Under the pieces are notes generated by a model, which ran no database searches, was not told the origin of the DNA, and saw only the letters and a list, made by a program, of their open reading frames with translations. Source: Patescibacteria group bacterium (GTDB lineage Bacteria > Patescibacteriota > CPR2 > UBA1875 > CAIMLA01). Taken from it: 64,000 bases of DNA. Where the stretch lies: assembly GCA_041738615.1 (NCBI GenBank), contig JBGSPL010000003.1, positions 24,708 to 88,707 on the forward strand, in the 5' to 3' direction. Below, piece after piece: positions 39,296 to 50,552 of this stretch. The stretch's first letter is position 1. The number at the start of each line of letters is the position of its first letter. Made by a program: the position numbers and the translations under genes.

Positions 39296-39370
39296 GGTCC
39301 CATCGTCTAGTGGTTAGGACGCCAGGTTTTCATCCTGGTAACAGGGGTTCGACTCCCCTTGGGACTACCA
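39296..39370 (+). tRNA. tRNA-Glu (anticodon UUC), CCA encoded
   Basis: Manual cloverleaf: acceptor GGTCCCA/TGGGACT, anticodon loop TTTTCAT, T-arm GGGGTTCGACTCCCC, discriminator A. Confidence 0.85.
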
Positions 39371-39530: not shown

Positions 39531-39551
39531 CGACTCCCCTTGGGACTACCA
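39531..39551 (+). repeat. Exact 21-nt direct repeat of the tRNA-Glu 3' end (CGACTCCCCTTGGGACTACCA), att-like
   Basis: Identical to 39350-39370. Followed by hairpin AGAGACTGATC...GGTCGGTCTCT plus a T-run. Confidence 0.8.
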
Positions 39552-39605
39552 AAAAGAGACTGATCATTTGTGGAAATGGTCGGTCTCTTTTTTTATTATC
39601 TATTC

Positions 39606-41834
39606 TTATTCGTGTTTTGCGGCAATTTCGGTTGCAGTAGGCATCGATGACACAGTCCCTTCTGGACGTGGTGCAGGAGCACTAGCGAGCTTCGGTGCCG
39701 GCCTTTTCTTTAGCGGGAACTTGAATCCAAATACAGAACCTTTGCCCTCTGTTGAGTCAAAGATAATCTCACCGCCATGATCGAGCACGACACGTTTCGC
39801 AAGGTAAATCCCTAGACCAGTACCATCCGGACGAGCGGTACGAGCATTATCGGCACGGAAGAATTTCTCGAAGAGATGGTCTCGCTGGGCTTTCGGTACA
39901 CCGATACCTGTATCATGCACTTCATAGATAAAGTTGTCTTTGTCATGGCGCAGCACCACTGTGACTCCGCCCGTGTTCGTATAGTAAATGGCATTGTCCA
40001 TGAAGTTCATCACTACCTGGCGAATCTTGGTCTCGTCCGCATAGATATGTGGCACCTTGCCCTTGGCTTCGAGCTTCAGATACAGCCCCTTTGCCTTGGC
40101 GCTATTGCTGAGTTGCTTCACTTCCTCATTCACGACACGTTCGATGTCCACCTCCTTGGGCTCTAGGAAGAAACGACCAGTATCCATACGAGAAACATTC
40201 AGGAGGTCGTTGATCAGACCCACCATACGGTTTGCACCACTGTAAGCTTCGTTGATGAAGTCGTACTGGCTTACCTTGATATCTCCGGCATCTCCCTCCA
40301 AAAGCATCGACAGATAGCCCTTGATGGCCGTCAGAGGGGTACGAAGCTGATGGGACGCCATGGAGATAAACTCGTCCTTGGCATGGTCTAGCTCCATCAG
40401 CTGCTCATTCTTTTGCTTCAGCCTGTATGTAGCGCGTTTTACTTCCTGACGCAAAGTGGTGTTGAAGCGGCTAATCTCCTCGTACGACTTGGCATTCTCT
40501 ACAGCAATGGCAAGCTCTGGTGCCAAAATTTCCAGAACGCTCATGTCCTGCTGACTATACATATCCCCCGAGCTCTTCTCCCCAAGTAGCATCACACCGA
40601 CTATTTCTTTCTCGGTCTTCAATGGAACTGCCAAAGTTGCTTCGTATTCGGATAGTAGGTGCTTCATACGAGAGCCGTCCTCAAGGTCGTCTAGATGGAT
40701 GATTCCATCCTTTGTGAGCTTGAGTACATCGCGAGGATCTACATCTGGAGTTTTCTTGTAGCCAATAGCCTGGGCGGTATAGAGGCGACTATCGTCCTTT
40801 ACAAGGGCAAAGAGCACTCTACTCGCCTTCACGTTCTTGGAAAGTAAATCTCCTACCTTGTATAAAAGCTCGATAAGAACAATGGTTGAGCCCATAGTAT
40901 TTGATAAACTGCCCAACAGTTCGTCGGCACTATAGGCGTTTCTGAAAAAAACTTTGTCTGTTACTTTTGTTATCCAAGTCTTGAGTGGTTGGAACAAGAA
41001 AACCATGACCACTGATATTACCGTTCTTAGAATGCCCTCTCCCCAGCCAAAATTCGCTAATTGCTCCGGGAAGAACAGTTTCTCTAAGCCCAGAACTGAA
41101 CCCGCATAAAATCCTGCCAGAGAAAGTAAAAGCAATAAATATGCTACTGATCGAGCTACCACTAACCTTATATCCAAGAATCGATGCCTCACAATTGCAT
41201 AGGCCGAAAAACCTACAAGGAAAATGGCGCTCTGTGCGTCAAATGGTACGGCTGGAGTAACACCGACTAAAGGCAACACTAAGCCCACCAGAAGAGCCAC
41301 GAAGGCATACAGGGTCAAACCGGTTAATATGTATTGCAACTGTAAACGCTTAACTCCGCGTGCCTTCATAAATGCCTTCACGACCAGGTAAAACATATAT
41401 ATTAGTGACACAAATACTGCACCACTGAAAATATTAAATAACGGTCCTGTTGTAAAGGTGTAAGACGAGGCGCTTGTGGCATTTATGGATTGGATAACTA
41501 ATCCGTCAATTAATGGCATCGCAAAAAGGACAAGACTAATGAAGTAAAAGATAGCAACCTTTGTGAACTTTGGCTCTCTCTCAAGCAAATACAGAAACCA
41601 AGGAACTAAAAGTGGTCCGACCGCGCCACCTGTAGAATATACCAACTTAAACATCAACAGGTCTTTGTGGAAGGAGAAGAAATAGAAATTAACTAGCGCC
41701 CAGAACGTGCTCATTAACGAGAAAATCAAGAATGAGATATTTAGCGGTTTCTTCCAGTTCTTCTGGAAAACCAATAGGCCAAGTAAAAAACTCGCTATTG
41801 CCACTATTAATGTAAAGTAGTTAAGTAAGTCCAT
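39606..41834 (-). CDS. Sensor histidine kinase: N-terminal ~8-TM sensor domain, GAF-like domain, HisKA + HATPase_c
   Basis: About 8 hydrophobic helices in the first 300 aa. H-box ELDHAKDEFISMASHQLRTPL. N/G1/G2 ATP-binding boxes. Pro/Ala-rich C-terminal tail. Start is 2 nt after the stop of the upstream alpha-oxoamine synthase gene. Confidence 0.85.
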   Translation of the reverse strand: MDLLNYFTLIVAIASFLLGLLVFQKNWKKPLNISFLIFSLMSTFWALVNFYFFSFHKDLLMFKLVYSTGGAVGPLLVPWFLYLLEREPKFTKVAIFYFISLVLFAMPLIDGLVIQSINATSASSYTFTTGPLFNIFSGAVFVSLIYMFYLVVKAFMKARGVKRLQLQYILTGLTLYAFVALLVGLVLPLVGVTPAVPFDAQSAIFLVGFSAYAIVRHRFLDIRLVVARSVAYLLLLLSLAGFYAGSVLGLEKLFFPEQLANFGWGEGILRTVISVVMVFLFQPLKTWITKVTDKVFFRNAYSADELLGSLSNTMGSTIVLIELLYKVGDLLSKNVKASRVLFALVKDDSRLYTAQAIGYKKTPDVDPRDVLKLTKDGIIHLDDLEDGSRMKHLLSEYEATLAVPLKTEKEIVGVMLLGEKSSGDMYSQQDMSVLEILAPELAIAVENAKSYEEISRFNTTLRQEVKRATYRLKQKNEQLMELDHAKDEFISMASHQLRTPLTAIKGYLSMLLEGDAGDIKVSQYDFINEAYSGANRMVGLINDLLNVSRMDTGRFFLEPKEVDIERVVNEEVKQLSNSAKAKGLYLKLEAKGKVPHIYADETKIRQVVMNFMDNAIYYTNTGGVTVVLRHDKDNFIYEVHDTGIGVPKAQRDHLFEKFFRADNARTARPDGTGLGIYLAKRVVLDHGGEIIFDSTEGKGSVFGFKFPLKKRPAPKLASAPAPRPEGTVSSMPTATEIAAKHE

Positions 41835-41835
41835 T

Positions 41836-43098
41836 CTACTTAATAATCTTCAACTCTTTACCAATTATTTCACAGGCATTAATGTATGCATCAAGATGCT
41901 CTTTCGTGTGGGTTACCATAACAATGATTCGAAACCTGCTCTGTCCTTCGGGTACTGCTGGCCATCTAACGATTGGTGAAAGGAATTTTCTCTCAAACAA
42001 TTTATTCGCAAATTCCACACCAAGTTTTTCATCCCCTACAAACAAGGCGACTGAGGGGATATTGTCTTTACCGACTATCTTAAATCCCTTCTCCTTTAGT
42101 TTGTCACGGAGATACTGCGATTTCTCAAAAAGGTTCTTTCTCAAGTTTTGGCCCTTTTTAATTTGCTTCACAGACTCAATCATTGCACCAGACATTGAGC
42201 ATGTCAGCGACGACGAAAGGATAGAAGACCTAGTAGCTATTCTAAGATAATCAATAAGTTCTTTCTTGCCACACAGATAGCCGCCAGTTCCACCCATGGC
42301 CTTATCCATACAACCCATCAGAATATCAATATCTTTAACACAATTATGATGCTCGGGGGTTCCGCCCCCATCCTTCCCTAAAATCCCGATACTATGAGCA
42401 TCGTCAATCATAATTTTTGCATTATATTTTTTTGCTAGGTTGATGTAGTCAGGCAAATTGATTATTTCGCCGTCGAGACTAAAAACGCCTTCTGTTATTA
42501 TCAATTTATTTTCAGTACTTTTATACTCTTTGAGCTTATTTTCTAAATCAACCAAATCATCATGCTTAAAAACAACGGTTTTGGCTGAGCTTAGCTTACA
42601 ACCATCAACTATAGATCCGTGATTATACTCATCACTAAATATCGCGCCGCTCCCTTTTTTGTAAGGGAGACCCATCATAAACTCATCCATAACCGCCCTG
42701 ATAACACCAACGTTCGCCATATAACCAGTTGGTAAGGTTAGGCAATCCTCAGTACCTGTTAGCCCAGCGATTTCTCGCTCTAACTCCTCGATTATATCCA
42801 CGTTACCACTTATGACACGAGAGCCACCTGGACCCATTCCATACTTTCGGATAGCTTCTATCCCGGCTTTCTTTACTGCCTCGTTTTCGGACATCCCTAA
42901 GTAGTTATTTGCACAAAAAATCTTGAAGGGTTCACCATCAATCTCGCAGACCGGTTCATTAACGCCACCTGTTATAACTGGGAACATGGGATAAAGTTCA
43001 GCGTCTTTTAGATAGTTAACGAGCTTATAAGCGTTGCCAAAGTGTTCTTTTTCCTTAATCAATTTAGAACCAGCGAAAAGCTTAACTTCTTTTAGCAT
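41836..43098 (-). CDS. Alpha-oxoamine synthase family PLP enzyme (BioF/Kbl/Spt/CqsA-like acyl-CoA:amino-acid C-acyltransferase)
   Basis: Class II aminotransferase fold: GSRVISGN, DEYNHGSIVDG, IMIDDAHSIG, PLP-lysine context MGCMDKAMGGTGGY. 420 aa. Confidence 0.8.
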   Translation of the reverse strand: MLKEVKLFAGSKLIKEKEHFGNAYKLVNYLKDAELYPMFPVITGGVNEPVCEIDGEPFKIFCANNYLGMSENEAVKKAGIEAIRKYGMGPGGSRVISGNVDIIEELEREIAGLTGTEDCLTLPTGYMANVGVIRAVMDEFMMGLPYKKGSGAIFSDEYNHGSIVDGCKLSSAKTVVFKHDDLVDLENKLKEYKSTENKLIITEGVFSLDGEIINLPDYINLAKKYNAKIMIDDAHSIGILGKDGGGTPEHHNCVKDIDILMGCMDKAMGGTGGYLCGKKELIDYLRIATRSSILSSSLTCSMSGAMIESVKQIKKGQNLRKNLFEKSQYLRDKLKEKGFKIVGKDNIPSVALFVGDEKLGVEFANKLFERKFLSPIVRWPAVPEGQSRFRIIVMVTHTKEHLDAYINACEIIGKELKIIK

Positions 43099-43165
43099 TG
43101 AGTATCCCTCCAGAGTTATTGTTATATTTAAATGATACTACCGACCGAGTGTAATTTAAAGGTCA

Positions 43166-44911
43166 CTATTGGTATAATCCTTCCAGGATATTCTCATATT
43201 TCCCTGCGATTACCTGCCTTTTTAGCGACAATTTTGGTGTCAATTCTCCACCTTCAATGCTGAAAGGCTCGGAAAGTAAAGCGAATTTACGCACGTGCTC
43301 GATTGTAGAGAGGTGCGCCGTCTTGTTTATCGCCTCACCCGAGATTAGCTCGATTACCTCTGGCATCTTAGCGAGTTTCGCCTTGTTTTTTACGTTAAAG
43401 TGAAGCGCTAGCTGGGAGTAATCGGGAACAATCAGCGCTGCGATATGCTTGTAGCCATCCCCCACCACCATGGCTTGCTCGATATATATACTAGACTCCA
43501 AGGCATTCTCGATAGCTACTGGCCCAATCTTTTTTCCTGTGGTTAGAACGATCAGGTCCTTTTTGCGCCCAGAAATAGTAAGAAAACCATCCTTATCAAT
43601 AGTGCCGAGGTCCCCAGTGCAAAAATATCCATCCTTGGTGAAGGCTTCTTTGTTGTCACTAGCGCGCAGATAACCCTGCGTGATAGTCGGGCCCTTCACT
43701 AGGATCTCTCCGTCATTGGCCAGCTTCAGCTTGATGTTGTAGATTGGGTGGCCAACAGTGCCAAAACGATAGCTTCCTATCTCGTTGACAGCCACTATCG
43801 GCGACGTTTCGGTGAGCCCGTAGCCCTCAAGTACCAGCATATCGACCTTGGCAAAGAACTGACCTATCTTCTTCGGCAGTGAAGCACCGCCGGAGATGAA
43901 GAAGCGAATGTTACCGCCAAAGTTTCCCTTTACCTTGGAGAAAACCAGTTTATCGAAAAGTGGATATAACGGACTGCTCTTCTTGGTTGCAAAAGCCAGC
44001 CGGAATATCAGCTTGGTGACCAGACTCTTGTTTGCCTTCGCCTGAACCTTTTCGTATATCTTTTCGTAGAGGCGCGGAACTGCTAGAACTATAGTCGGCT
44101 TGATCGCCTGAATCTCATCGGAGAGAGTGTCTAAGCTCAGGCAGTATGCGATGCTGGCACCGGCATAGATAGGGATATAATAGCCAGCAGTGCGCTCGAA
44201 AACATGTGAGAGTGGCAAGATTGAAAAGAATTTGTCGGTTGGCAGTATCCATATAGAGTGTGTGGTGCCGACAATGTTCTCGATAAAGTTGCCATGGGTA
44301 AGCTTGACCCCCTTTAGATGCCCCGTGGTACCAGAGGTATAGATGATGCTCGCGAGCACATCGGGGCGAATCTCCAGAGCGCCTGCCGCTATTGCCGACT
44401 CCTGAACCTCGGTGATTTCCATGTCGTTTATAAGCTTCTTGAAGTACAAAAGCTTTGAAAAATTTGTATCCTCGATGTGAGTGAAGGAAACAAGATGCTC
44501 GATTTTCGCTACATCTCTAGCAATTTCGAGTAACTTATCCTCGATAGCCTTCTCGGAAAAGAAGATTGCCTTTGGCTTGATCTCCTCGATGATGCCAGCG
44601 AGCTGGCCGGCAGAGAGCACTTCGTGAACCGGTACCGTGACGCCTCCAATAAGCTGCAGAGCAAGGTCGGTAATCACCCACTCTGGGCGGTTTTCGGAGA
44701 TTAAGAGTACCTTATCTCCCTGTTTGAAGCCGAGGTTCAGCATCGATTGCGCTAGCGCCATGACCTCACTCTTCAGCTCAAAATAGGTTAGGCTCTCATA
44801 ATGATGGCCCTTCTTGTACTTCAGAACCTCGTTTTCGGCGCGTAGTTCGGCAGAAGTGAGAAACATATCGGCGAGATTTAGCGGTATCCACTGCTCTTTT
44901 GGCTTTGTCAT
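43166..44911 (-). CDS. Long-chain fatty acid--CoA ligase (AMP-forming, FadD-like)
   Basis: AMP-binding motif IYTSGTTGHLKGV, TGDLG...DGFL, C-terminal lid; 581 aa. Confidence 0.85.
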   Translation of the reverse strand: MTKPKEQWIPLNLADMFLTSAELRAENEVLKYKKGHHYESLTYFELKSEVMALAQSMLNLGFKQGDKVLLISENRPEWVITDLALQLIGGVTVPVHEVLSAGQLAGIIEEIKPKAIFFSEKAIEDKLLEIARDVAKIEHLVSFTHIEDTNFSKLLYFKKLINDMEITEVQESAIAAGALEIRPDVLASIIYTSGTTGHLKGVKLTHGNFIENIVGTTHSIWILPTDKFFSILPLSHVFERTAGYYIPIYAGASIAYCLSLDTLSDEIQAIKPTIVLAVPRLYEKIYEKVQAKANKSLVTKLIFRLAFATKKSSPLYPLFDKLVFSKVKGNFGGNIRFFISGGASLPKKIGQFFAKVDMLVLEGYGLTETSPIVAVNEIGSYRFGTVGHPIYNIKLKLANDGEILVKGPTITQGYLRASDNKEAFTKDGYFCTGDLGTIDKDGFLTISGRKKDLIVLTTGKKIGPVAIENALESSIYIEQAMVVGDGYKHIAALIVPDYSQLALHFNVKNKAKLAKMPEVIELISGEAINKTAHLSTIEHVRKFALLSEPFSIEGGELTPKLSLKRQVIAGKYENILEGLYQ

Positions 44912-44978
44912 GGGTATCCCCTCCAGCTATTCAGTATTAGTATATTATCAGATTACCTGGTGCTTGTAGAGACTTTCC

Positions 44979-45935
44979 CTACTGCGAAAACTTCCACTTA
45001 TACTTGCTTGATGCGCCAAGATAAGCATCAAAGGTGCCCTGCAAACCTTGGGCGGTACTAGTCGGGAACATGCGAATCCTGGGAATTTCATAGTTGTTTC
45101 CCGACTTGGCAAATGGTTGGGTAGTAACCGCGGCCTTATAGCCTGCAGCTTTTGCCTCACGCTCGGTAAGGTCCCCAAAACGTCCCGACGGATAGCAGAG
45201 AAATTCTACTGGCTTGCCTGTAATCTCCTCTAGGGAGGCCTTGCTGTTTGCAAGTTGGCTATCCATATCGCCCTTCTTTGCATACTGCATATCGATGTGG
45301 CTCACAGTATGCGACTGAATATCCATGCCAGCATCCGACATCTCGCGGAGCTGGGTGCTATTCATATATCCGCCCGCACCAGCGTAGCTAGATATGATAA
45401 AGAAGACGCCTTTTTGGTCACGTTCTTTGAGCATACTAAAAACCTCTGTATAGTTGTCGGCGTAGCCGTCGTCGAAGGTCAAGATTACTGACTTTTCGAC
45501 AACTTTTCCAGAGAAAAGGTCGCTAAAGGTTATGGTGTGGTAGCCATTATTCTTTAGCCAGTCTAGGTGTGAGGCGAACGCCGCAGGCGTCACTGAGAGA
45601 CCGGCCTCTATCTTGTCTGTTCCTGCATAGTTTTGGATATGATGATACATGAGCACTGGCACTAGCTTGTCCCCAGCCACATAATGTCGCTCCTCGCCCC
45701 GTGGCATTGGCGAAATGTTGGGTGGCTGGTATTCTCCCTCATGAAAGACTCTCTCTGCCAGCATAGTGTGGGCTTCGTTAACCGTCTTGGGTCTTCTATT
45801 GCTAGAGAAACTGCGCAGACTACGTGCCCACACAGACACTCCCATAATTAAAAGCACGACACCGATTACGGTGACAGGGAAATCATAACGTAGAAAACGG
45901 TGTTTATTCGGTTTTTTGAACATTACTTTTTGCAA
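44979..45935 (-). CDS. Polysaccharide deacetylase (NodB homology domain) with N-terminal TM anchor
   Basis: NodB motifs ILTFDDGYADNY and MYHHI, catalytic His region. 318 aa. Confidence 0.75.
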   Translation of the reverse strand: MQKVMFKKPNKHRFLRYDFPVTVIGVVLLIMGVSVWARSLRSFSSNRRPKTVNEAHTMLAERVFHEGEYQPPNISPMPRGEERHYVAGDKLVPVLMYHHIQNYAGTDKIEAGLSVTPAAFASHLDWLKNNGYHTITFSDLFSGKVVEKSVILTFDDGYADNYTEVFSMLKERDQKGVFFIISSYAGAGGYMNSTQLREMSDAGMDIQSHTVSHIDMQYAKKGDMDSQLANSKASLEEITGKPVEFLCYPSGRFGDLTEREAKAAGYKAAVTTQPFAKSGNNYEIPRIRMFPTSTAQGLQGTFDAYLGASSKYKWKFSQ

Positions 45936-45952
45936 TTTGCTCCTGCATATCC

Positions 45953-47608
45953 TTAATTACTAACCGTGTACACTTTGTTTGGTGCGCTGCCCGTAATGTT
46001 CGCGCCGCTCTCATTTTGATTATTTAGCCGAAATCCAAATTTGTATTTGCTGGTTTTGGCATCGTATTCATAATTTATATTTGTAATGTCATAGTCCGAG
46101 GTAAGATACGGGTTATCTCCAGCTGTGAGCACCGTGAGAAGCTCAGTGGCGTCGACGGCGGTAGGATACGAGCCCTTGTCTTTCTTGTACTGTTCGACCG
46201 CTGTCTTTAGCGTAGTAATTTCGGCCTTGATTGTCTCGTCTTTCGCCTTATTTGCTGCGCCCGTGCCAAAGTTTTCGTCATAGGCAGCTGCAGCATCAGT
46301 AGTGTTGATGATTCTAGCTCCAATCGGTAGCTTGATGGCTTCATTGAAATCATAGTTGAAGCTTTGCTGCCACGAAAGTGTATAGCTAGTCTCCATCCCT
46401 TGCGAGGTTGTTGCCGATGCTGTATCTCCTGTCGCCGCTAGTTTAGCTGCCGCACGAATGTCGAGCTTGGATACTCGACCACTAGCTGCGTCTATCCAGA
46501 CATCAGCTCTGGTGGCTGCCTCGTCTACGGTGATATCTACCCCGCTCTTGCCACCCTCCAAACTGTCCTTGATGGCCCCAATTTGTTCCGTAGTGGGAAC
46601 GAAAATAAAACGGTACTGCTTCTTACCCTCTACTACCTCGTCGCTTCCGCGAGTAAAACCCCTGGCACTACTCGCCGTGAGCCAGCTCTTTTGCGGTAGG
46701 AGCTGCGCTGTATCGGCACCCATTGCCTCCGAGTTTGTGGCTGCCTTCCAGGCATTCTTGTATTCTGTGAATTTCTTGGTAGAAAGCTTGGAGTTTTCTG
46801 CGTCCGCAATATATAGGGTATCCTTCTTCTTTAGATAAACCAGACTCCCCGGTAAACCCGCCTCAGTAAGCGTTAATCGAACGTTCTGATCACTATCCAC
46901 CTCTAACTTGCCCTTGGCAGTAAAGCCGGTTGCGCTCAAATCTAGCTTGCTAGACATCTTGGGTAGCGCCGCTAGCTGAGCGACAGCCCCTTGGAGTATC
47001 TTTTGATTATTACTTGTCTGATATGCCCGAAACCCTAGGAAACCACCGACCGAGATGGCCACTAACAGCACAACCAAACCGCTATACATCAAAACTTTTT
47101 TATAGGCTTTCTTTCCTGAGGCAGTGAATGACTTTTCTACCGGTACCGACGCGGGCCTCTCTATCAAAGTACCATCTACTGCTACGCTCATTCCCCTGCT
47201 ATCCATCGAGTCTTTCTCGAGAAGCGGATCGGCAACCATTGCTGGGCTGTTGTATGAATCCCGAATCGGCTCCCTGGGAACTCCGACTGGCGCTGACGGT
47301 ATAGCAACTGGGGCCTCCGTTGGGACTTGCGGCATTGGTGCATACGTTTGCTCCATGCTCGGCTGCTCTGCCTCCGCTTGCCCTTCGCTAGCACCCTCTT
47401 CTACAGTGGGCGCAGTACTATTCTCCTCTGGAGCCTCAGGCACAGGGGCTACCACAATCTCGGGCTCGGCCACCATATCATCGGGGCGAAAAATCGGCGG
47501 CATATTTGTGTCTGCGGTACTCGGAGATGGCAAATCTGCTGCTGGCGTTAGACCACCGGCAGCATCTCCCTCCAGGGAGTTTATCGCATTTGCAATATCA
47601 TCGTCCAA
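45953..47608 (-). CDS. Single-pass membrane protein with Pro/Ala/Glu-rich N-terminal region and C-terminal pseudopilin (GspG/type IV pilin)-like domain
   Basis: TM at about residues 170-195. C-terminal segment KAEITTLKTAVEQYKKDKGSYPTAVDATELLTVL matches the conserved pilin/pseudopilin alpha-beta junction pattern (A..DI..L..AL..Y..D.G.YP). No prepilin leader. Confidence 0.45.
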   Translation of the reverse strand: MDDDIANAINSLEGDAAGGLTPAADLPSPSTADTNMPPIFRPDDMVAEPEIVVAPVPEAPEENSTAPTVEEGASEGQAEAEQPSMEQTYAPMPQVPTEAPVAIPSAPVGVPREPIRDSYNSPAMVADPLLEKDSMDSRGMSVAVDGTLIERPASVPVEKSFTASGKKAYKKVLMYSGLVVLLVAISVGGFLGFRAYQTSNNQKILQGAVAQLAALPKMSSKLDLSATGFTAKGKLEVDSDQNVRLTLTEAGLPGSLVYLKKKDTLYIADAENSKLSTKKFTEYKNAWKAATNSEAMGADTAQLLPQKSWLTASSARGFTRGSDEVVEGKKQYRFIFVPTTEQIGAIKDSLEGGKSGVDITVDEAATRADVWIDAASGRVSKLDIRAAAKLAATGDTASATTSQGMETSYTLSWQQSFNYDFNEAIKLPIGARIINTTDAAAAYDENFGTGAANKAKDETIKAEITTLKTAVEQYKKDKGSYPTAVDATELLTVLTAGDNPYLTSDYDITNINYEYDAKTSKYKFGFRLNNQNESGANITGSAPNKVYTVSN

Positions 47609-47626
47609 GATCCCCTCCCGTTGTGA

Positions 47627-48439
47627 CTATACCGATGTATCCCTAAAGATAAACCGAGCTAGCGCCAAGATAGTAAATACCGCCGAAACTCCTAAGAAAT
47701 AGGGTAAGTAGTTCTCTACGTACTCCCCTTTGACTATATTGGTAGCACCGTTTAGATAGTGGAAAAATGAATAATCCTTCAGGTAAGCCATATCGGCCTT
47801 GAGTCCACCAACAATATTGATTCCATAGAGAGCTATCACGATTCCGGCGGTCGAAAATGATGCTTTGCTCTTCTCCGAAAACAGCGCCGAAAAGAGACAG
47901 GCAGTGCTGAATACAGTGATTCCGAAAAGCAAACCGCTAACCGCAAGTGGCAGATTGTTCATCCCCTCTAAGTTTATTTTGTGCAACTTGGCCAGAGGAA
48001 CTATGGCATACACTGTTGTAAAAGCAAAGAATGCGAGTAGAGTCACTGATGCCGCATAACGACCCATAAATATCTTCCACCTTTGTAAGGGTAGCGCCAG
48101 CGTCTGCTCGATCGTCCCCTTTTCAACCTCTCCAGAAATCATCGAGTTCGCCAAAGAAATCCCAAGGACAATCACAATAATCGGCCAGATGATGCTGTAT
48201 TGTTCAGAGGCTACAAAGGTAGAAATCTTTGCAAAGTTCAAGTTTGCAGGATCAAGGCCAAATACCGTCCAAATCTCCTTAGGGTAGCTGTCTAACAACA
48301 CATTGATCTTGTCCATCGCCACTGAGCCAAACGTCGGAAATAGCGCTACGTACATCTCAAGAAAAGCGACTGTGCTGATGATATAAAGGAGTATTGACCA
48401 GATTCTATCCTTTAGGAAGCGAAAATATACTGCAATCAT
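47627..48439 (-). CDS. ABC-2 type transporter permease
   Basis: 270 aa, 6 TM, ABC-2 topology. ATGA-coupled to the upstream ATPase gene. Confidence 0.7.
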   Translation of the reverse strand: MIAVYFRFLKDRIWSILLYIISTVAFLEMYVALFPTFGSVAMDKINVLLDSYPKEIWTVFGLDPANLNFAKISTFVASEQYSIIWPIIVIVLGISLANSMISGEVEKGTIEQTLALPLQRWKIFMGRYAASVTLLAFFAFTTVYAIVPLAKLHKINLEGMNNLPLAVSGLLFGITVFSTACLFSALFSEKSKASFSTAGIVIALYGINIVGGLKADMAYLKDYSFFHYLNGATNIVKGEYVENYLPYFLGVSAVFTILALARFIFRDTSV

Positions 48440-49323
48440 TATTCTTTCCTTTCGTAATACTTCAGGAAAACATCCTCTAGGCTAGCGTGCGAAACCTCGA
48501 TATCTAGCAACTTGTGTTTTGAGAGCTTGTGCATCACTGGGTTGATGTCACCAGAAACCGTAATCATCACGCCGTCAGATACTTCCTCTACCTTATCCAC
48601 TCCCTTGCCGATAAACTCCGATACTTCGTACTTGTCAGCAAAACGCACCTCTATCTTGTGGAGTTTCTTTTCGCCAAGAGCTTTGATGCTCTCTACGGCG
48701 ACAAGCTTTCCCTCCTTGATGATGGCAACCCGATCACAAAGACGCTCTACCTCTGGTAGATTGTGAGAGGAGATAAATATCGTCGTGCCCCTATCTCTCA
48801 TGGAGAGCAATATCTCATAAATGGTGTTCTGAAGTAACGGATCGAGGCCTACTGTAGGCTCATCCATGACTAGTACCTTTGGATTATTCATAAGCGCCAG
48901 AATCAAGCCGAGCTTTTGCTTATTCCCACTAGAGAGATGCCGAAATTTCGCCAAAGGGTTGTAGTCGAGCTTCTTCATGAGGTCTCGTACGGTGTCGGAC
49001 TTGCCACGTACACTCTCGAAGAAGTGGATGTGGTCCCAGCCAGTCCAATTATCATAAAGCTTTACATTGCCAGGTAGGTAGCCAATCTGTCTTTTTACGT
49101 CCTCCGCACCTAGGAAAAGACGTTTGCCTAATACTGTGACTTCACCCTTGGTGGTCTTGTTAAAGCCCATGAGGCAGCGAATAGTCGTGCTTTTACCAGC
49201 GCCGTTCGGCCCCAAAAAACCAAAAATTTCCCCCTCCGGAACTGCAAAAGATATCCCGTCTACCGCATGGAGTTTGCCGTAGTGTTTTGCGAGGTCAGTA
49301 ACCTCAATCACATTTTTCTTCAT
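48439..49323 (-). CDS. ABC transporter ATP-binding protein
   Basis: Walker A GPNGAGKST, signature LSSGNKQK, Walker B LVMDEPT. 294 aa. Confidence 0.88.
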   Translation of the reverse strand: MKKNVIEVTDLAKHYGKLHAVDGISFAVPEGEIFGFLGPNGAGKSTTIRCLMGFNKTTKGEVTVLGKRLFLGAEDVKRQIGYLPGNVKLYDNWTGWDHIHFFESVRGKSDTVRDLMKKLDYNPLAKFRHLSSGNKQKLGLILALMNNPKVLVMDEPTVGLDPLLQNTIYEILLSMRDRGTTIFISSHNLPEVERLCDRVAIIKEGKLVAVESIKALGEKKLHKIEVRFADKYEVSEFIGKGVDKVEEVSDGVMITVSGDINPVMHKLSKHKLLDIEVSHASLEDVFLKYYERKE

Positions 49324-50162: not shown

Positions 50163-50552
50163 ATGGCAATAAGAATCTTACTTGCAGAAGATGACATCCA
50201 GCTAGTCGACATGTACAGTCGCAAATTTGCGCTCGACGGCTTTGATGTTCAACTAGCCGAGGATGGTCAGAAAGCAATCGACATCCTGAAAACTGGTTTT
50301 GTACCAGATGTTGCCATTCTTGATGTAATGATGCCCCAAGTGGATGGCTTGCAAGTACTCGCCTATATCCGCGAGCAAAAAGAGCTAGATGATCTCATCG
50401 TAATCATGCTCACAAACCTCTCCGACGAGAAGACCGCAGAAAGAATCTATGCCCTCGGTGCCACTGAGTACCTCGTGAAAGCGGAGTTTACCCCACTCGA
50501 GGTTTCGGCCAAAGTAAAAGAACTGATCGAATACTACAAAAAAAAGAAATAA
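50163..50552 (+). CDS. Stand-alone response regulator receiver (REC/CheY-like) domain protein
   Basis: ILLAEDD...phospho-acceptor Asp in ILDVMMP, conserved T and K. 129 aa with no output domain. Confidence 0.85.
   Translation: MAIRILLAEDDIQLVDMYSRKFALDGFDVQLAEDGQKAIDILKTGFVPDVAILDVMMPQVDGLQVLAYIREQKELDDLIVIMLTNLSDEKTAERIYALGATEYLVKAEFTPLEVSAKVKELIEYYKKKK

Follow-up and report, generated by a model that had tools for sequence, protein, structure and literature searches.

The window, i.e. the whole 64-kb stretch of patescibacterial DNA that was analysed, holds one kinase gene and one receiver gene, and both lie at the locus of an alpha-oxoamine synthase (AOS). The locus comprises the following features:

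39296-39370: tRNA-Glu, faced by the palindrome at 39551-39592
39551-39592, unstranded: palindrome with a 19-bp stem and A and T runs on either side, 14 nt beyond the kinase stop codon
39606-41834, minus strand: sensor histidine kinase (742-aa ORF)
41834-41838, minus strand: stop-start junction TAG-a-ATG (AOS stop, 1-nt spacer, kinase start)
41836-43098, minus strand: AOS, 420 aa (PF00155 at 5e-40)
43166-44911, minus strand: AMP-binding ligase, 581 aa (AMP-binding and AMP-binding_C_3, Pfam 4e-71)
44979-45935, minus strand: NodB-type deacetylase (Pfam)
45953-47608, minus strand: 551-aa protein with a weak T2SSG (pilin-like) match
47627-48439, minus strand: ABC-2 permease (Pfam)
48439-49323, minus strand: ABC ATPase (Pfam)
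50163-50552, plus strand: REC-only response regulator, 129 aa (PF00072)

The minus-strand genes are all co-directional and are read in the order ABC-2 exporter, 551-aa protein, NodB deacetylase, acyl-CoA ligase, AOS and 7TM-GAF kinase. Every ORF of the gene set given in the preliminary description was found on the minus strand at its reported position, each of the domain calls was confirmed by Pfam, and the co-directional ORFs support the operon architecture drawn there. The 2-nt gap between the AOS and kinase genes had to be shortened, as the AOS stop codon TAG occupies 41838-41836 and the kinase ATG begins at 41834, leaving a single nucleotide between them. Inspection of the sequence between the AOS stop and the kinase start revealed no Shine-Dalgarno motif; because the spacer is 1 nt long and devoid of this motif, translational coupling of the two genes is likely. 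The corresponding gap in relatives ranges from -4 to +95 nt. The genes for the ABC ATPase, the ABC-2 permease, the 551-aa protein and NodB (44979-49323) probably share the AOS-kinase transcript, since the gaps between the upstream genes do not exceed 67 nt. The palindrome at the other end is likely to be a bidirectional terminator that closes the operon.

The synthase is a member of the AOS superfamily, as it matches PF00155 with 138 bits (cut-off 19.7) and retains the catalytic set: H160, D233, H235, K266 and R390 are intact and occupy the same alignment positions as in Kbl, SPT and BioF. Lys266 (codon 42301-42303), located in the motif CMDKAMGGTGG, corresponds in the alignment to the PLP lysine of the solved Kbl and SPT structures, which agrees with the PLP-lysine previously placed in MDKAMGGTGG. 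The protein also has motifs of its own (GPGGSR, NHGS, C-M-D-K and RWPAVP, with an Asp preceding the PLP lysine) and a clade-specific insertion of about 11 residues (about 139-149, encoded at about 42652-42684) that follows the PTGYMAN helix. In a tree computed without CqsA, it falls into a separate clade with 100% bootstrap support, apart from Kbl, BioF and SPT; clustering with BioF or Kbl, a possibility raised in the preliminary description, was thus not observed.

None of the NCBIfam equivalog cut-offs for BioF, Kbl, SPT or CqsA was reached by the AOS. The scores and respective cut-offs were 343/426 for BioF (TIGR00858), 339/460 and 285/493 for Kbl (NF005394 and TIGR01822), 314/640, 267/500 and 207/670 for SPT (NF047600, NF047599 and NF047603) and 168/428 for CqsA (NF005526). 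In comparison with solved structures, Kbl gave 252, the SPT of S. multivorum 226, BioF about 120-146 and CqsA (2wk8, 3hqt) 64 bits. As all three SPT models remained below their cut-offs and the clade is separate, identity with SPT was rejected. Comparison of the active-site residues, carried out with regard to the substrate, yielded family signatures only.

The kinase encoded directly downstream contains a PF16927 (HisKA_7TM) domain at residues 8-222 (about 41169-41813), and its score of 36.1 bits against a gathering cut-off of 28.6 places it in this family. It is followed by a GAF domain (about 40494-40877), HisKA (about 40176-40382) and HATPase_c (about 39708-40037), after which the protein ends with no receiver domain; the GAF domain and the HisKA/HATPase core had already been recognized, and Pfam agrees. 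The earlier description of the sensor as having eight transmembrane helices is corrected to 7 TM helices plus long eighth and ninth hydrophobic stretches, reaching to about 40947, as read from the hydropathy profile; the AF2 model of the membrane region contains 8 helices. Within the kinase, conservation is lowest in this 7TM region, and the modelled PF16927 fold resembles that of GPCRs. When the kinase N-terminus was used by itself in a word-index homology search, hydrophobic words swamped the result, and the 3 matches were of no help in naming the family. Four 7TM segments scanned against NCBIfam at E values up to 10 matched no model of CqsS type and none that was otherwise informative.

Bacterial families of 7TM receptors include 7TMR-DISM. 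Both this family and PF16927 share with the window sensor a seven-helix input fused to a kinase, GGDEF or HD-GYP output. As far as our literature search went, no ligand has been reported for PF16927. What sets the window sensor apart is its link with an AOS, which would give an initial hint of the kind of ligand.

The REC-only gene is divergent from the operon, with 171 nt separating it from the nearest of the co-directional ORFs, the first. It is present at 50163 as first described, and its distance from the kinase start is corrected from 5 kb to 8.3 kb. Its PF00072 match and its status as the sole REC in the window support the earlier suggestion that it is the partner of the kinase. The gene is kept in the same position in locus L002 (88% identity), and all of the 53 REC ORFs adjoining 80 homologous kinases are 100-150 aa long. 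The REC-only protein is therefore a probable phosphoryl acceptor of the kinase, as judged from sequence.

The association of the AOS with a 7TM protein extends well beyond the window. A PF16927 7TM gene adjoins the AOS in 26 of 30 loci of the clade, and about 50 outgroup AOS loci include no such case. Each of the Patescibacteria loci of the clade that were surveyed encodes the 7TM kinase directly downstream on the same strand, so that the synthase-kinase adjacency noted at first in one genome is conserved in relatives. The pairing of AOS and kinase greatly exceeds what chance would give. It occurs in Saccharibacteria, Kerfeld-, Berkel- and Colwellbacteria and Paceibacterota, where the AOS proteins are as little as 41% identical, and Kerfeldbacteria have additional stand-alone 7TM proteins encoded upstream of the AOS. 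The partners in Actinomycetota are different: eight are co-directional 7TM-(PAS)-GAF-GGDEF-HD-GYP proteins and at least five are convergent 7TM-PAS-PAS-HisKA-HATPase-REC hybrid kinases, with PF16927 scores of 168-196 bits. The sole element common to all AOS partners is the 7TM domain. The AOS lacks an adjoining 7TM gene in one Actinomycetota subclade (three Coriobacteriia loci and Thermoleophilia L016). In a proteobacterial branch the neighbour is a convergent multi-TM kinase, and alignment of the N-termini of these kinases with the 7TM alignment (hhalign) gave a probability of 12.7%. The pairing of AOS and 7TM domain recurs across two phyla and is therefore probably the mark of a lipid-like signal with a receptor for it.

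These neighbourhoods also bear on the question of whether the AOS is a housekeeping enzyme. The best HMM and PDB scores of the protein are those of BioF and Kbl, and its homologs are publicly annotated as 8-amino-7-oxononanoate synthase. Kbl, BioF and the promiscuous BioF/Kbl of Thermus thermophilus (7v58, 1fc4, 7poa) are its top-scoring solved relatives (218-252 bits), with which it shares the fold, the His-Asp-His-Lys-Arg catalytic set and the length. The AOS could then serve threonine/glycine interconversion or biotin synthesis, its adjacency to the kinase being inherited synteny. However, it differs from these enzymes in the insertion, motifs and clade described above, and every Kbl and BioF score is under the equivalog cut-off. 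Moreover, neither tdh nor bioB was found beside the clade members among the loci examined, while bioB is a neighbour in 22 of the approximately 50 outgroup loci; this contrast indicates that the neighbourhood method separates functions. Kbl was thus rejected on the grounds of its cut-offs, its own 100%-supported clade and the missing tdh, and BioF on those of its score (343/426), the separate clade and the absence of bioB beside any clade locus. Inherited synteny cannot account for the AOS-7TM adjacency, since this exists in two phyla and in three arrangements, and we consider the housekeeping role very unlikely.

The reverse link is weak. An AOS gene was found upstream of only 2 of 80 metagenomic kinase homologs, and close orthologs of the kinase are preceded by ThiF, PlsC, HAD or formyltransferase genes instead, therefore the kinase does not need an AOS. 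A cross-phylum receptor subfamily of AOS-linked 7TM domains was not seen (13.5% identity, versus 13.8% between linked and unlinked domains).

An AOS-family synthase adjoining a multi-TM kinase follows the same logic as CqsA/CqsS, and the preliminary description had proposed a CqsA/CqsS-like system. In Vibrio cholerae (CqsA/CqsS) and Legionella (LqsA/LqsS/LqsR), as at the window locus, an AOS-superfamily PLP enzyme is encoded beside a polytopic sensor kinase. The CqsA/LqsA systems also resemble the module proposed below in the use of acyl-CoA and in a receiver protein without classical DNA-binding output, and the Actinomycetota hybrid kinases, like CqsS, end in a C-terminal REC. On the other hand, CqsS and LqsS sensors are of a six-helix type, whereas the window sensor is a PF16927 7TM domain with GAF, its kinase has no receiver, the ligase is dedicated, and the AOS belongs to a different clade, whose partners in Actinomycetota include c-di-GMP enzymes. 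Solved CqsA is the remotest AOS compared (64 bits versus 252 for Kbl), and the score with the NCBIfam model for CqsA is 168 bits (cut-off 428). Membership in the true CqsA/CqsS family was rejected on the basis of these scores and the receiver-less kinase, and production of a CAI-1/LAI-1-type hydroxyketone by a genuine CqsA (LqsA) appears most improbable. In a tblastn search of plasmids for a CqsA reference, the matches listed were confined to genes for Kbl, HemA and BioF and to unnamed AOS genes.

The idea of an AOS-sensor system in Patescibacteria is already published. Bernard et al. 2020 (mSystems, PMC7567580) proposed 'CqsA homolog / sensory kinase' pairs in this group in silico and counted 51 adjacencies; the listed pairs include those of Berkelbacteria and an AOS from the Kerfeldbacteria MAG that carries L007. 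These pairs match the window locus in both gene family and adjacency. Their custom 'CqsS_sensory_Nter' HMM matched Berkelbacteria kinases beside AOS homologs with an E value of 5.6e-15 (PMC7567580 Table S4), which favours the Cqs assignment; however, HMM matches between TM domains may reflect composition alone. The published calls rest on BLAST/HMM similarity to CqsA, and with the 'CqsA_seed' HMM, true Kbl proteins linked to Tdh reach 168.5-209.9 bits and the kinase-linked AOS 168.3 (PMC7567580). This model therefore does not discriminate between them, and the 'CqsA homolog' label, as far as those data go, is founded on a similarity that true Kbl proteins hold equally. The searches described there were made in genomes of CPR and DPANN and thus did not extend to the Actinomycetota partners, and the separate AOS clade is defined in the present analysis rather than in the consulted parts of that paper. 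Our literature search found no experimental work on the AOS-7TM pair.

The ligase gene precedes that of the AOS. Its product matches PF00501 with 240 and PF23562 with 43 bits, and its best NCBIfam matches, all below cut-off, are long-chain ligases (FadD11, 263 versus 950; PRK06187, 237 versus 476). Its probable role is to provide acyl-CoA by activating scavenged fatty acids. L002, L004 and L098 encode a ligase of this type, while L017 and L086 have a different AMP-binding enzyme of 483-488 aa, the gene of which overlaps the AOS start in L086. Acyl-activating and acyl-transfer genes thus recur beside Patescibacteria AOS in varied order and type, in support of the accessory role given to the ligase in the first description. 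It is missing from all Actinomycetota loci, and Actinomycetota make their own acyl thioesters. The ligase is accessory to the AOS-kinase module and not universal. The remaining genes are more variable: L002 has no NodB, and its 472-aa protein is only 24% identical to the 551-aa protein of the window, while L004 has neither the ABC ATPase and ABC-2 permease nor a 551-aa-type protein or NodB. NodB, ABC-2 and the pilin-like protein are not conserved with the AOS-kinase pair and were rejected as parts of the module.

The genes found around the AOS could also be read as a lipid-remodelling or aminolipid operon, in which the AOS makes a sphingoid-type base and the 7TM-GAF kinase is a general sensor of envelope or lipid status. 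The ligase and AOS, together with the PlsC, HAD phosphatases and alpha/beta hydrolases of relatives, would then use scavenged fatty acids to make membrane lipids. PlsC genes adjoin the AOS in L004, L015 and L017. Genes of acyl and lipid metabolism persistently stand ahead of the kinase gene at loci devoid of AOS as well: L099 has a hydrolase, ligase, formyltransferase, PlsC, HAD and kinase, L100 two PlsC genes, HAD and kinase, and in L097 the gene of a PlsC-type acyltransferase lies upstream of that of the kinase at a distance of four genes. Members of the kinase family are common among Patescibacteria, most of them without a linked AOS, and this proposal stays alive because most orthologous kinases have no neighbouring AOS. 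The S. multivorum SPT, with the 226 bits given above, is among the closest solved relatives of the AOS. The ceramide genes of Caulobacter are an example of a bacterial SPT cluster with an acyl-activating enzyme. Such clusters resemble the window locus in placing an AOS beside an AMP-forming acyl-activating enzyme and in having a long-chain aminoketone as a plausible product.

However, the conserved partner at the window locus is a sensor rather than a lipid enzyme, and the SPT scores are far under their cut-offs. Ceramide pathways typically include a ketoreductase and an N-acyltransferase; neither was found among the Pfam-annotated neighbours of the examined loci, nor was an ACP or a ceramide synthase. 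Furthermore, in Actinomycetota the AOS stands beside a 7TM protein without lipid genes and with c-di-GMP or hybrid-kinase outputs, and a general sensor leaves the near-constant 7TM neighbour of the AOS clade unexplained. We regard the lipid-remodelling operon as the main rival of the explanation preferred below, although rather unlikely.

The explanation that we tentatively prefer, with a confidence a little short of even, is that the AOS makes an acyl-aminoketone from scavenged fatty acids and that the GPCR-like 7TM receptor senses it. We infer the substrates, the product, its binding by the 7TM domain and the kinase-REC pairing as follows. The FadD-type ligase would convert scavenged (host-derived) fatty acids to acyl-CoA, which the AOS would join to an amino acid with decarboxylation, yielding a hydrophobic alpha-aminoketone akin to the amino-CAI-1 precursor or 3-ketosphinganine. 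This compound would enter the membrane and be read by the PF16927 7TM domain of the kinase, which would signal to the divergent stand-alone REC protein. As the latter has no DNA-binding domain, the output would probably be protein-protein interaction and not direct DNA binding. The aminoketone might act as a signal between cells or as a readout of the cell's own lipid supply.

Patescibacteria live as obligate episymbionts and possess very few regulatory genes; here a kinase is tied to an enzyme predicted to make a lipid-like amine out of scavenged fatty acids. Actinomycetota are the known hosts of Saccharibacteria, and a chemistry common to both phyla could therefore carry episymbiont-host signals. 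That the AOS-7TM pair constitutes an acyl-aminoketone synthase and receptor in both Patescibacteria and Actinomycetota, possibly conveying a symbiont-host signal made from host fatty acids, is a speculative extension that we consider unlikely. If the AOS product were the ligand, it would represent the first ligand class for a PF16927 7TM sensor and a signal family distinct from CAI-1/LAI-1, and would offer a testable route of symbiont-host communication. Even if the system served lipid homeostasis, it might be the means by which a bacterium without fatty-acid synthesis monitors its lipid supply.

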